A model generated the notes under the pieces. It was not told the origin of the DNA. It searched no databases and saw only the letters and a list, made by a program, of their open reading frames with translations. From NCBI GenBank assembly GCA_039798485.1, contig JBDKGB010000027.1, positions 1,240 through 65,239 of the forward strand: DNA of 64,000 bases, given 5' to 3'. This DNA is from Bacteroidota bacterium. GTDB taxonomy: Bacteria; Bacteroidota; Bacteroidia; Flavobacteriales_D; Crocinitomicaceae. Shown one piece after another: positions 59,731-64,000 of this stretch. The first letter of the stretch is position 1. The number at the start of each line of letters is the position of its first letter. Made by a program: the position numbers and the translations under genes.

Positions 59731-61065
59731 TTATACCGATTTCCGACTTCGCCACCACCGCTTCAGTTTTTTTGATTTCTCCGGGAACAAATACATCAAT
59801 AGCGGAATGGCTATGGAAATGAGTAAAATCCCAACTAAACTGTAAAAAACCCATGCATTCATCCCCGTCCATCGTTGAACCTTTGGCGCTGCATTTACAA
59901 TGGGCAAAACACTCCCAATGGAGGTGAAAATCCCGACAAGTCCAAGTAAGGCATTCGCACGGGATTGTTGTTGTTCGCGAATGGATTCTGATATTCGGGT
60001 GATTCGGTCCTGAAACTGCTTTAATTCCCCATCAATATCCAAACTTGACCGGTGCTTTTGGTACATCAAGTTTGGTAAGAAATTGTAAGAAATATGGCTG
60101 ATGTTGTAGGTATTCAGAAATTCTTCAAACTGGTCCCTCACTTTCACAGAGTCATTGATCATTTCAGAATTGTACCGATATAGATTGAATTTGATTAACA
60201 AGTTGTGCAAGAAAACCCGAAAGTATGATTGCGACCAAGTACGCGTTTTAGCTGTCGTTTTATCCTCATCTAACATTGCGTTGCCAAGCACTGTGAAGGA
60301 ATCAAAAAGTGGAAGTATATCGTAGTTGTTGAAGATAGAGATTTTATTTTCCATCAGCTCCTCAAAATAGGTTTGGCTTGGAGAGAACAACTTTTGGCCA
60401 CCGGCAGAACCTATTTGTGCTCCACATCCAAGATCATACAAGAGTTCAGCGCGCGTATTTTGATCTACAATTTCTTCAAGGTCAATGATTGAAAAAACTT
60501 TAAACTTTGAACCCGAATAATCGTCCACCTTCGGTCCCTTCCTTCCTGTTTCCCCACTAATTGAAATGTCGCACAGCACTTCTTTTTCAATCCAATTCAC
60601 CCAATTGAGTTCTGCGTCAGAACTTAAGACCTTCGTATAGAAATTTCTCACGACAAACGTGAGGTCTGAATAACTGGCTAGCTCCTTCATTTCAATGGAC
60701 AAATCGATCGAGAAAAAATGAAGATTGTTCTTGAATAAAAACACTTCAGCTCCTTCAACACGAACAGAAATGCAGGTTTTTTCTTTCGTTGTCTCGTTTG
60801 TGCGCACAACCAAAACAATGTCATTTTCGAGGTTTTTTGTTAAAATCGTTGCACTGCTTTCTTCTTGGCGTAAGAAATACAAATCGCGAAATTCGGGGTA
60901 CCAGTAATTTTTGAAATAATCCAGTGTTTTTGGATCGTCGATAACTTCTTCCGTGTACTTTTCCTGTTTAAATTTCGAGGCCAGTGTGCGCACACTTCCT
61001 TTCGTTTCAAACACACCCACAATCCGAACAATGGCATTGCGAACTTTTAGAGATGACTTGTCCAT
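59731..61065 (-). CDS. CorA-like membrane protein (large soluble N-domain, coiled coil, TM1-GMN-TM2, basic tail)
   Basis: The C-terminus reads ...ALLGLVGIFTSIGSVLPIV-NAAPKVQRWT-GMN-AWVFYSLVGILLISIAIPLLMYLF-PEKSKKLKRWW. The GMN motif is at aa 401-403 (nt 59857..59865). The N-terminal 370 aa match nothing I recognise. Confidence 0.45.
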   Translation of the reverse strand: MDKSSLKVRNAIVRIVGVFETKGSVRTLASKFKQEKYTEEVIDDPKTLDYFKNYWYPEFRDLYFLRQEESSATILTKNLENDIVLVVRTNETTKEKTCISVRVEGAEVFLFKNNLHFFSIDLSIEMKELASYSDLTFVVRNFYTKVLSSDAELNWVNWIEKEVLCDISISGETGRKGPKVDDYSGSKFKVFSIIDLEEIVDQNTRAELLYDLGCGAQIGSAGGQKLFSPSQTYFEELMENKISIFNNYDILPLFDSFTVLGNAMLDEDKTTAKTRTWSQSYFRVFLHNLLIKFNLYRYNSEMINDSVKVRDQFEEFLNTYNISHISYNFLPNLMYQKHRSSLDIDGELKQFQDRITRISESIREQQQSRANALLGLVGIFTSIGSVLPIVNAAPKVQRWTGMNAWVFYSLVGILLISIAIPLLMYLFPEKSKKLKRWWRSRKSV

Positions 61066-61122: not shown

Positions 61123-62619
61123 CTAAGCTTCATAAATGGTGGACTTTTCTATGACCACTTTTTTAAACTCCTCAGAAACATTGAATTGGTTGAAAGCTTC
61201 ATCAACAGCCTCGGGCATTAATCCTTTCATGGGGTGCAACAATTCAACTTGAGCCAATTCTTTCATTGACGGGTAGCGATAAAAGCTCTCAGTGCCATCA
61301 TCATCGCAGCGGTAGGTAAAGATCCAGCGAATGTTTTTGGGTGAACGCCAATCCTCTAAAGGCTCCTCGTTTTCATCGTAGGTATAAAACCAATCTGAAA
61401 TTTTCAATTGCGCATAAGCCACTTGCGCCTCATCAAGACCATCAATAATGATGACCAAATTACCCGAAGTATTGTTTTTTTGTAGGTTCAAATGCGATTC
61501 AAGCAGCGATTGAAACAACTGAATCACGTCAAAATACTTGCTTGGTAAACGGTTGAGCTTGCGTTGAATGTGCTCATCAGAACGATTCCAATATTGGCTT
61601 CGATAGCCCTGAAGGATCAGGTGGTACAATGTTGCATGGAGGCTGTTTTGAAGTCCTGCACCACAAAAATGATAGAGCACTTGAGCCTTTGAATCTTGTA
61701 GTGTTCCGATCACATCAGCGATGAGTGCCCCCTTCCCCATTCCGGCTGGAGACTTCACACAAAGCACATTTTTCTCATCCACATTCTGGCAGAATTCAAG
61801 AATGGCTTTCTTTTCTCGTTCACGACCAACAAAGCACGATTGATAATAGGCTATACGCTCGCTATGGTCGAAAACTTGTCCTGCTCCTCCTTGCAGCGAG
61901 GCACGCATAGGTTCAAAAATCGGCTCAAGGTGCGTGTCAGAACATTGAGCATCCTCGTCACCCAACATAAGGTTCAACATTGAAACCTCACCCTTCGACT
62001 TATGTAATCCTTGAAAAATGTATGGATGTTCCTTGTCCTCCCCTTGTTGTAAGAAGGGATGTAGGCACAGGGCGTGTTCATTTTCCTGCCAATAACATTT
62101 GCCATCAATCAATGCGATCTCCCCATTTGAAAACAGTCCCACGAGCTCTGCCATTTCTTCAAACATGAGAATACCATTTGAAAGCTGTTGAAGAAACTCC
62201 GACTTTAATTGAATCTGTTGATGCACGAATTTGTTTCGAAACGTGACAAATCTATCCAGAAGGGATTGCCCTCCTTTGGGTTGAACCATTGGATCTTTCC
62301 AAGCATCTTCTTCAGTACTGATCACCCACAGATTTTTCCAGCTTGTATCTGAAGGCAACGTTTCTCTGAGATTATCAAGTACCTGCTTGGTAAAAAGGGC
62401 GTCACCTTGTCCATCCAATTTTTCAAATTTTCTGCATAGTTGAATGACTGCACCCATCCGCAAAATCATGGTGCTCATTCCGAATGCAGCCATGAAGAAA
62501 TTGTTTAGTCCGGCGTTGTCGTTTTCTATGAGTTCAGACAATAGATCTTGCTCTGCACAAATGTGCTTTTCGTTTTTTAGCGCTATGTACCTTTGGTGGT
62601 ATGTTAGTATCGGCTTCAT
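61123..62619 (-). CDS. Fusion of an RNxxxH (HEPN-like) N-domain and a NACHT-like P-loop NTPase; no sensor repeats
   Basis: FRNKFVH at aa 127-133 (nt ~62221..62238), at the end of a ~130-aa helical region. Walker A is SPAGMGKGAL (aa 290-299), Walker B is LVIIIDGLDEA (aa 388-398), and there is a sensor-1-like IFTYR. The protein ends about 60 aa after that. Confidence 0.55.
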   Translation of the reverse strand: MKPILTYHQRYIALKNEKHICAEQDLLSELIENDNAGLNNFFMAAFGMSTMILRMGAVIQLCRKFEKLDGQGDALFTKQVLDNLRETLPSDTSWKNLWVISTEEDAWKDPMVQPKGGQSLLDRFVTFRNKFVHQQIQLKSEFLQQLSNGILMFEEMAELVGLFSNGEIALIDGKCYWQENEHALCLHPFLQQGEDKEHPYIFQGLHKSKGEVSMLNLMLGDEDAQCSDTHLEPIFEPMRASLQGGAGQVFDHSERIAYYQSCFVGREREKKAILEFCQNVDEKNVLCVKSPAGMGKGALIADVIGTLQDSKAQVLYHFCGAGLQNSLHATLYHLILQGYRSQYWNRSDEHIQRKLNRLPSKYFDVIQLFQSLLESHLNLQKNNTSGNLVIIIDGLDEAQVAYAQLKISDWFYTYDENEEPLEDWRSPKNIRWIFTYRCDDDGTESFYRYPSMKELAQVELLHPMKGLMPEAVDEAFNQFNVSEEFKKVVIEKSTIYEA

Positions 62620-62621
62620 GA

Positions 62622-62780
62622 TTACTTATCGTAATAGCATCTAGCGAGTTTTGCACACGTTGTCGGATGAGCACAACTAGGATTACCTGGTCTTTTACAT
62701 CTAACTCCAGGAGGTGGGCTTACCATTTTTACTGTCTTTGTAAACTTGATTTTCTTGACTGATTTTAACTTTGCTTCCAT
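62622..62780 (-). CDS. Unannotated 52-aa basic, Cys/Pro-rich micro-ORF
   Basis: My codon-by-codon translation is MEAKLKSVKKIKFTKTVKMVSPPPGVRCKRPGNPSCAHPTTCAKLARCYYDK. The ATG at 62780 is 8 nt after the upstream stop (62788), and the TAA at 62624..62622 is 2 nt before the downstream ATG (62619). It is below the ORF-track length cut-off. Confidence 0.45.
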   Translation of the reverse strand: MEAKLKSVKKIKFTKTVKMVSPPPGVRCKRPGNPSCAHPTTCAKLARCYYDK

Positions 62781-62787
62781 GGTTAAA

Positions 62788-64000
62788 CTATTTTATTAAT
62801 ACTTTATGCTGATATTCCAGTTTCACATCACGCCTTCCTAGTGTAAGAAAAATGCGAGAGCTTTCCTCGATTGTTTTTGGGAAGCCATAGAGTTCATCAA
62901 CTTCATCTTGTTTAAACGGTTCTTTACCCAAGGAATAAAATGGACTCAAGATCCCAAAAGCTTCATGCACAAATTCTATCGGGAACCCATGCATATCTGC
63001 GAAACGCCTAGCAACAATCACTTCTTTATTCTCTAACTTGGAATGAATGGCAAAAACAATTTCTTTCAATTTCTCATAATCAGCCACTTGGTCCTTTTGT
63101 TCTTTGCTAGGTCCTTTAAAACGAAGGTAATTCGTTAAAGAGTAATTCACTAGGTCAATCTCTACCTTTGCTTTAGACTTGCCTAATTCAACCTCAGCGT
63201 TGAAAAATCGCTTGAGATAAGGATAATTCCAAGACGTACCAAGCACTGCGACACCTGCCTCAAACAATTCATTGAAGAACAAAGTGAGGTGATTTTCATT
63301 GAACAAAGCTACATGCATGTTGTGGAGTATTACCACAGGCATTTTAGTCATTAGCTTCTGGTTGTCCTTGTTTTTTAGAAATTTAATGGGATCCTTGTGA
63401 GCGTTATCCTTATGAGTATGTTCGAACAACACTTTTCCCAATTCCCTTTCTAAAAAAGAACGTGTGTAGGTTGCACCTTGATCATTCAGCGCATAATGAA
63501 TGGGCAAATACGGACCTTGATCGGCCAATTTCAATAGGGTACGGTAGGCCTGAACACCCACTTCCGATCCAGGATTGTACCAACAGACCAAGGCACCTTT
63601 TCCCTTTTCCAATAGGGACAAAGCAGCTTGTTTCATTTCAGGGATATCTTTGGAGTTTTGACGCGCAAAAGCACCTTCCTCAATTCGGAAACTCTCAGAA
63701 TATTCATGAGAAACACGCTGTGCGAGTTGGCCGAATGATTCACAATTCCTGAGCAACTCCCAAGCACTGGGATCGGTAATGTTCCACTGACCATTGAAGC
63801 CCTGATGATCAATGAAATGGAATTCTCCGAAGGTTTGTTCAAACAATCCAGCTTGTTGGATTTTTTCGAGGATCGCTTCCATCTTGCTTAATTCTTCCCG
63901 ATTTCGTTCGGGCGGCAAGACAAAAAATCCGTGCATCACGGCATTCCGCAAACTGGCCAGGTGGTGTATTTCTTCGTTCAGAACCTCCTTTCCGTCGCAC
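62788..64000 (-). CDS. Paralog of 61123..62619 with an RNxxxH motif and a degenerate (probably inactive) P-loop; 5' end lies outside the window
   Basis: The reading frame stays open to nt 64000 (CDGKEVLNEEIHHLASLRNAVMHGFF...). LRNAVMHG is at nt ~63931..63948. The positions equivalent to Walker A, Walker B and sensor-1 read NPGSEVGVQA, VVILHNMHVA and LGTSW. Confidence 0.5.
   Translation of the reverse strand, partial: CDGKEVLNEEIHHLASLRNAVMHGFFVLPPERNREELSKMEAILEKIQQAGLFEQTFGEFHFIDHQGFNGQWNITDPSAWELLRNCESFGQLAQRVSHEYSESFRIEEGAFARQNSKDIPEMKQAALSLLEKGKGALVCWYNPGSEVGVQAYRTLLKLADQGPYLPIHYALNDQGATYTRSFLERELGKVLFEHTHKDNAHKDPIKFLKNKDNQKLMTKMPVVILHNMHVALFNENHLTLFFNELFEAGVAVLGTSWNYPYLKRFFNAEVELGKSKAKVEIDLVNYSLTNYLRFKGPSKEQKDQVADYEKLKEIVFAIHSKLENKEVIVARRFADMHGFPIEFVHEAFGILSPFYSLGKEPFKQDEVDELYGFPKTIEESSRIFLTLGRRDVKLEYQHKVLIK

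Follow-up and report, generated by a model that had tools for sequence, protein, structure and literature searches.

A rare four-cysteine small-protein gene at the A-B junction of a HEPN-like/STAND-NTPase operon in Bacteroidota

Comparison with described systems

CCHC zinc knuckles are short Cys/His metal-binding domains with basic flanks. Bacteroidetocins, the class IIf bacteriocins of Bacteroidota, are basic, carry a double-glycine (GG) leader of 15-16 residues and contain four Cys (PMC6671954). Architectures in which an N-terminal HEPN domain is combined with a STAND NTPase are described in PMC3710099. Here we describe a gene for a four-Cys peptide in a 64,000-nucleotide stretch of DNA from a Bacteroidota bacterium (the window), where it lies between two larger genes, A and B, and compare it with each of these systems.

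Like the bacteroidetocins, the peptide is small and ribosomally made, belongs to Bacteroidota, has an N-terminal extension of ~15 residues, four Cys and a basic character, and shows a patchy, mobile distribution. Bacteroidetocins, however, have a conserved GG leader and a mature form of 42-48 residues with hydrophobic stretches, whereas in the peptide GG is mostly missing and the core is 30 residues long and very hydrophilic. Bacteroidetocin genes are, moreover, always adjacent to genes for an ABC transporter/peptidase and a TM protein, and usually to one for a thiol oxidoreductase, none of which is found near the peptide. Among the features that define double-glycine bacteriocins, the four Cys and the basic charge are thus present, and a conserved leader of 15-24 residues ending in GG, GA or GS (the window copy reads ...K-M-V-S before the core) and the export genes are missing. 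Of the marks of a RiPP precursor, neither a nearby maturase nor a conserved leader was found; the leader is the least conserved part of the peptide. Like zinc knuckles, it is very small and basic, has invariant Cys and His residues and carries a Lys-rich tail, and by this analogy a cytoplasmic setting would be plausible. Unlike them, it has the arrangement C-x7-C-x-H-x3-C-x5-C, with no CxxC and no C-x2-C-x4-H-x4-C; that is, the ligand spacing of canonical zinc fingers and knuckles is absent. The peptide fails the defining tests of double-glycine bacteriocins, RiPP precursors and canonical zinc knuckles alike.

At the level of the operon, the STAND/HEPN-type conflict operons treated in PMC3710099 and PMC7159879 likewise combine an optional, co-directional and tightly packed small gene with an R-x4-H (HEPN-like) region, a STAND fold and a CorA-like membrane effector. 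A term search of the two articles returned no Cys-rich peptide partner and no slot at a junction of this kind. Unlike the small ORFs of those operons, the four-Cys peptide also occurs outside them.

A partial likeness was seen to YgiQ-type proteins (Radical_SAM_N + Radical_SAM + DUF3362), a family without a solved structure. As in the peptide, their motif has the form C-x7-C-x5-C and includes P-S-C-x-H-P; unlike the peptide, it contains one more Cys, at +3, and has no counterpart of the fourth Cys. One such protein is encoded at L009:796-2697 (minus strand), and the motif is found in the genome of the window at G000:C23:2706-2774. The radical-SAM core and the peptide align ungapped with 9 of 18 identities and the same spacing (E ~0.2 per genome); a database-wide search did not recover the similarity, which is at chance level. 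We regard it as a weak lead, and as a lead only, towards possible metal binding.

The peptide gene, its homologues and their conservation

The gene lies on the minus strand at 62622..62780 and consists of 52 codons, beginning with ATG (62780..62625), and a TAA stop (62624..62622). Upstream, gene A ends with TAG at 62790..62788, and the peptide ATG starts at the 8th base after it, behind a 7-nt spacer (62781..62787, minus strand); downstream, a 2-nt spacer (62620..62621, minus strand) separates the peptide stop from the ATG of the NTPase gene B at 62619. The ORF takes up 159 of the 168 nt between A and B (62620..62787). An earlier note on this DNA had given the same location, gap, translation and 8-nt and 2-nt junctions, all of which agree with the sequence; its count of four Cys is likewise correct, and its seven Pro are in fact six (residues 22, 23, 24, 31, 34 and 39). 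The Cys, at positions 28, 36, 42 and 48, form the pattern C-x7-C-x5-C-x5-C, with His38 two residues past the second of them. There are ten Lys, and the net charge at pH 7 is about +10, of which the core has about +5; the GRAVY value is -0.6 for the whole peptide and -0.9, or very hydrophilic, for the core. GC3 is 0.28, compared with 0.42-0.44 in the neighbouring genes. A complete ORF of at least 52 codons appeared in 7 of 5000 mononucleotide shuffles of the 168-nt gap, so its length is beyond chance; the conservation of the frame under purifying selection in ~20 homologues is the more decisive evidence.

These ~20 homologues derive from metagenomes, and every one of them has an open frame. In what follows, WIN is the window copy, and L0xx, G0xx and P00xx denote homologous loci, genomes and database protein clusters, respectively. 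A search of 5.8 billion proteins returned three homologues, of 51-52 residues and 71-75% identity. Pattern scans found one locus (L016) in a species-genome collection and 16 loci (L017-L032) in metagenomes, and an HMM search of 1.84 billion representatives gave seven related clusters. The frame is intact in 17 loci and 9 database clusters, at 45-88% identity, and ~30 distinct peptide sequences are found in ~15 billion proteins. The 13 distinct full-length DNA copies can all be read without interruption from an M-E/K-T start to the stop, with indels that span whole codons. At L026:5989-5991 and in L027, on two independent metagenome contigs, ATT stands in place of the ATG that starts the other copies (M-E-T-I-I-N-K); the remaining ORF is intact in both and 98% identical to the ATG-bearing copy of L028. 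Either ATT serves as the start there or these copies have been freshly silenced.

In an alignment of 15 sequences, 15 core residues are invariant, namely the four Cys, R30, P31, N33, S35, A37, H38, P39, T40, T41, K44 and Y50, which gives the core pattern RP.N.SCAHPTTC.K; Met1, outside these columns, is also invariant. At least two different codons are used for every one of the 15 core residues, and Ser, for instance, is written as both AGT and TCT. To quantify selection, pN and pS were obtained from Nei-Gojobori counts. Pooled over the core, pN was 0.09 versus a pS of 0.68 in clade 1 (pN/pS 0.14), and 0.04 versus 0.48 in clade 2 (pN/pS 0.07); between WIN and its closest relatives, core pN was 0.05-0.08 and pS 0.7-0.88, which is saturated. 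Third positions vary in 29 of 30 core codons, and second positions in 11 of 30. The comparison of homologous loci that the earlier note had called for, of synonymous against non-synonymous changes and of the Cys spacing, is thus positive: core pN/pS is 0.07-0.14 and the Cys are invariant. These data demonstrate that the 52-codon frame, read in that note as coding, is a genuine gene under strong purifying selection, with amino acids conserved and no frame breaks among its homologues.

No Pfam, NCBIfam or PADLOC model matches the peptide or four of its homologues, the NCBIfam precursor models giving nothing at E<=10, and a literature search with the core motif had no match. The family is without any match in curated libraries, and the sources label its members 'hypothetical protein' or nothing. 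We conclude that this is a new, previously undescribed and rare family of small proteins. Sequence matches in the PDB were confined to the base of the HIV gp120 V3 loop ('..I-x-C-x-R-P-x-N-N'; E 0.08-3), a coincidence, and the top score in the ESM Atlas, 0.82, was inside the noise range.

The gap could also be read as encoding no protein, its ORF being a product of chance, a cis-regulatory uORF of irrelevant sequence, or part of a structured RNA. In favour of this, the ORF is short, sits close against the start of the next gene and contains P-P-P-G, which belongs to a known ribosome-stalling type of motif; the PPP is missing from clade 2, however, and the amino-acid sequence is under selection in genomic surroundings that differ widely. 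A structured RNA or riboswitch was rejected, as the gap has no Rfam match at E<=1 and a fold z-score of -0.15. The non-coding reading, to which we assign a negligible probability, is already refuted by the selection data unless the homologues are assembly artefacts.

The peptide consists of two parts, in agreement with the Lys-rich, leader-like half and Cys/Pro core of the original description. Codons 1-21 (62718..62780, minus strand) form a Lys-rich N-terminal segment that varies in length and sequence and has an AlphaFold pLDDT of <50, and codons 22-52 (62625..62717, minus strand) form the conserved core, which contains P-x-P, C28, C36, His38, C42 and C48 among its features. Across the family the product has 45-55 residues and is strongly cationic, with the C-terminal ~30 residues near-invariant. 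The N-terminal segment is 11-27 residues long, poorly conserved, Lys-rich and always in frame; it opens with M-E/K-T in nearly all copies, and the ATG is usually the first start past an in-frame stop 1-6 codons upstream. Its pN/pS within clades is ~0.45, and it is therefore translated. In clade 1 the transition to the core reads ...K-M-V-S-P-P-P-G-V-R-C..., and the peptide ends ...C-Y-Y-D-K; the corresponding sequences of clade 2 are ...K-A-G-G-P-K-P-W-I-T-C... and ...C-H-Y-S. The core sits at the extreme C-terminus in every true member, and a library-wide HMM search found no fused form, the only longer records being a 92-residue read-through and a 230-residue probable over-call.

A second possible start, at Met19, had also been put forward. 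This residue is invariant in clade 1 and missing from clade 2 and L022, so the 34-residue product is not the general form; the upstream part is in frame, its indels are codon-sized, and its pN/pS tells against a general Met19 start as well. Within clade 1, Met19 may still act as an additional internal start. AlphaFold, run on the 15-sequence alignment, gave a model of the peptide too unreliable for a fold search (pLDDT 58); in this low-confidence model a strand at 27-29 pairs with a strand at 49-51.

The operon and its A-B junction

Downstream of the peptide, gene B (61123..62619, minus strand) encodes a protein of 498 residues with an R-N-x3-H region and a P-loop STAND NTPase, for which Pfam gives NPHP3_N (4.4e-13) and AAA_16 (3e-8) above the cut-off, and also NACHT and nSTAND1. 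The last gene of the operon (59731..61065, minus strand) encodes a CorA-like membrane protein (PADLOC CorA models, 4.5e-10 and 1e-7). Upstream of the peptide, gene A (62788..64000, minus strand), which runs off both the window and the contig, encodes a protein of ~500 residues with a helical R-N-x3-H domain and a degenerate STAND/AAA+-like fold. Protein A has no Pfam match above the cut-off; its homologue in L018 matches HEPN_LA2681 at E=0.01, below the cut-off, and this is the sole Pfam match to a HEPN. The R-N-x3-H, to be compared with the R-x4-6-H motif of HEPN domains, is invariant in the families of both proteins and is N-terminal in B. An AlphaFold model of the protein A family (alignment A4; pLDDT 82) shows a helical N-terminal domain and an AAA+/STAND-like alpha/beta domain, and Foldseek relates the model to Apaf-1, CED-4, Dark and ORC/Cdc6 ATPases. 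Judged by this model, protein A has the look of a degenerate NTPase that partners B. Neither BLASTP nor hhalign detects significant similarity between A and B beyond the short R-N-x3-H region. The 'two NTPase paralogs' of the earlier note are therefore a statement about folds only, because the sequence comparison is negative and the model hits ATPases: a shared fold architecture is plausible, and paralogy at the sequence level is not borne out.

When the operon was submitted to PADLOC, the matches were weak and partial (PDC-S20, 2e-5 over 59 residues) apart from the CorA-like models, and no named defence system was returned. The operons of L016 and L018 additionally encode a protein of 769-1150 residues and one of ~200 residues upstream of A. 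In the genome of the window, the N-terminal ~200 residues of the large upstream protein are encoded at the edge of another contig (G000:C43:110-700, minus strand; L046), with 73% identity to L016:338-2647. The operon is therefore split here by the assembly, and the window contains only its distal part.

The A-B junction was compared in 16 operons. Nine or ten of the junctions (L026 being the tenth) have no spacer, with a gap of -4 to +5 nt that includes 4-nt ATGA-type overlaps. In four operons the junction contains the peptide, which stands alone in the window, L018 and L019 and beside a 150-residue ORF (L016:4782-5234, plus strand) in L016. Unrelated ORFs fill it in three others, coding for a 99-residue membrane protein (G022, L014:507-806, minus strand), a 212-residue protein (G061, L034:866-1504, plus strand) and a 230-residue protein (G122, L041:753-1445, plus strand). 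No family match was found for the 99-, 212-, 230- or 150-residue cargo. Between the stop of A and the peptide there are 7 nt in the window and 9-10 nt in L018, L019 and L016; between the peptide stop and B there are 2 nt in the window, L016 and L018, and 12 nt in L019. Cargo-bearing A proteins end directly past ...Y-Q-H-K-V-L-x-K, and spacer-less A proteins extend 2-5 residues further, reaching the start of B. The 212-residue cargo shares (L034:1480-1504, compared with L036) the ...N-I-Q-x tail and the ATGA overlap that end A in the cargo-less sister. Since this cargo carries the tail of A, the insertion took place just upstream of the last codons of A and captured them.

These comparisons show that the window peptide is a 168-nt insertion at a junction where A and B ancestrally overlap by 4 nt, and that this junction is a recurrent cargo slot, which holds unrelated small genes elsewhere. 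The earlier note had counted homologous loci without the spacer as grounds for rejecting the ORF. Such loci do exist, in 9-10 of the 16 operons, and for that very reason the peptide is to be seen as an optional insertion and not as a spurious ORF. Nor is it a core subunit, because most A-B operons do without it.

In an ML tree of the B protein, the window groups with L016 and L018 in a supported clade (97/93), and L019, which likewise has the peptide, branches outside the group to which six peptide-less operons belong. The second deep branch of this tree includes L025 and L026, whose peptide is of clade 2 and lies away from the A-B junction; in L024-L028 this peptide follows, at a distance of 34 nt, the final gene of an operon rearranged to A-B-Big-DUF2797. 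The DUF2797 protein of L026 (E=8e-76; L026:5160-5954, plus strand) is encoded after the large protein of the operon and before the clade-2 peptide. Standalone copies also exist: those of L017 and L020 lie between DUF805 genes, that of L030 after gldN and that of L029 beside truA- and leuB-like genes, and others are near genes for an M54 peptidase, a SHOCT protein, or SnoaL and cysteine dioxygenase. These flanking genes are unrelated among themselves. Identity between the standalone copy in L017 and the one in the L018 slot is 88%; copies therefore move between contexts. Because copies exist far from A-B genes, the peptide may work on its own.

Of 401 genomes searched in the order Flavobacteriales, 13 (~3%) encode a member of the B-protein family. 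The peptide is absent from 60 close relatives, 400 order genomes and 400 class genomes, in which hits recurring at E ~0.2 belong to the YgiQ motif, and thus is found in its own genome only among ~860 Bacteroidia; it was likewise absent from IMG/VR viral contigs, INPHARED phage records and PLSDB plasmids. About 5 of ~12 independent peptide lineages lie inside the A-B operon, at two positions and with two peptide clades matching two operon clades. With this proportion of lineages in one rare operon, the association is far from chance. We conclude that the peptide joined the HEPN-like/STAND-NTPase operon at least twice, in two operon positions, and also occurs on its own. It is a horizontally mobile accessory gene repeatedly linked to this system, and the composite reading of a real, selected and mobile accessory gene is, in our assessment, highly probable.

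It has also to be considered that the peptide is an unrelated hitchhiker, with an independent cellular function and a proximity to A-B that reflects a recombination-prone slot and no functional tie. That the slot takes unrelated ORFs, that the peptide is found in at least six other contexts, that most A-B operons are without it and that its GC3 is atypical are all in keeping with this. However, given the rarity of both the B family and the peptide, the share of lineages in the operon is far above what chance would give, and we consider a hitchhiker unlikely.

Possible roles of the peptide

The earlier note had named a small disulfide- or metal-binding regulator, an antitoxin-like partner and a secreted or modified peptide as candidates. 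We tentatively consider it likeliest that the peptide is a cationic knot in the cytoplasm, with a metal bound by its four Cys and the His, and that it modulates the A-B system. The peptide would be co-transcribed and translationally chained with its neighbours, the 7-nt and 2-nt spacers taking the place of the ATGA overlap, and would remain in the cytoplasm, as a signal peptide is lacking and an exporter is near no copy. In this reducing environment, the four invariant Cys and the His would most simply constitute a small metal site, of Zn or Fe-S type, and the Lys-rich tail could be a flexible basic arm suited to contacts with nucleic acid or an acidic surface. The peptide would thus be an optional accessory subunit, modulator or adaptor of the A-B NTPase machine, and not an essential one, acting for example by tuning the activation of the machine or by binding nucleic acid. 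A cytoplasmic role is favoured because no exporter, peptidase, oxidoreductase or maturase gene adjoins the peptide in any of 14 contexts, because no C39 peptidase (PF03412) was found in its own genome (85% complete), because the window peptide has no hydrophobic signal region, and because the chaining to cytoplasmic partners is kept. Against a metal knot, Zn sites are seldom built from single Cys 5-7 residues apart without CxxC, a spacing that is common in secreted peptides held by disulfides. Against the cytoplasmic reading, the variable N-terminus ahead of a fixed C-terminus and the small residues before P-x-P (AGG/AAG/MVS) look like a cleavable leader.

The main rival is accordingly an exported, leader-processed cationic peptide with two disulfides, bacteriocin-, antimicrobial- or signal-like, which would be self-sufficient cargo in permissive slots. 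It would be cut before P-x-P to a mature form of ~30 residues, with the pairings C28-C48 and C36-C42. The N-terminus is variable, and the core is invariant and C-terminal in all members, as would suit such a peptide, with small residues ahead of it (AGG/AAG in clade 2; in P0008, ANA preceded by a hydrophobic stretch); the four invariant Cys with their non-CxxC spacing, the net positive charge, the pairing of strands 27-29 and 49-51 in the low-confidence model, the bacteroidetocin-like layout (PMC6671954) and the many standalone copies are also consistent with it. However, genes for an ABC transporter/C39 peptidase, a TM immunity protein or a thiol oxidoreductase stand beside the peptide in none of the 14 contexts, and PF03412 is missing from the genome, as noted above; GG is present in 3 of 13 distinct sequences and not in the window copy, a hydrophobic signal region is lacking from a peptide whose core has a strongly negative GRAVY value, and no bacteriocin Pfam model matches. 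Export would also leave the enrichment beside one rare cytoplasmic operon unexplained. We judge it to be somewhat unlikely.

The Cys, Ser and Thr of the core (S-C, T-T-C) might alternatively be modified to thioethers or azolines, the peptide being a RiPP precursor and the enzymes unrecognised ones, possibly the large proteins of the operon. A Cys/Ser/Thr-rich core behind an N-terminal extension, next to large proteins without assigned function, would be compatible with this, yet genes for radical SAM, YcaO, LanB/C/M or peptidase proteins adjoin none of the copies, the standalone copies have no common neighbour, and no NCBIfam precursor model matches. A variable leader and a fixed core are, moreover, the opposite of what is seen in most RiPP families. 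The absence of maturation and export genes from the surroundings of the peptide in all 14 contexts speaks against a modified peptide, a reading that we hold to be highly improbable.

A different view of the operon, which we consider quite improbable, is that the A-B junction may be a dedicated exchange slot for small plug-in genes and the peptide a self-encoded ligand, guardee or decoy monitored by the STAND sensor. Loss of the peptide, its cleavage at the invariant C-x-R-P loop, or release of its metal during infection would then switch on the HEPN-like and CorA-like effectors. If true, a mobile gene of 160 nt would give bacteria a counterpart to the decoy-guarding of NLR-type NTPases.

Taken together, the best overall explanation is a real mobile gene whose product would be a cytoplasmic modulator, to which we give a little less than an even chance. 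The interpretation in the earlier note survives as to a coding gene and its two-part layout; the general use of the Met19 start and the sequence paralogs do not. The general kind of gene, for small Cys-rich accessory proteins, is familiar, and what is unusual is the tie to an undescribed HEPN-like/STAND/CorA operon with a swap-slot. Proteins of <60 residues routinely escape annotation; selection on this one is demonstrated, and curated libraries contain no relative. The four-Cys family is among the rarest seen, and it was recruited repeatedly into one uncharacterised operon of this type. If the peptide is exported instead, it would stand for a new class of cationic peptides, stabilised by Cys, in aquatic Bacteroidota; if its link to the operon is functional, it would offer a way into the tuning of NTPase conflict systems by very small accessory factors.
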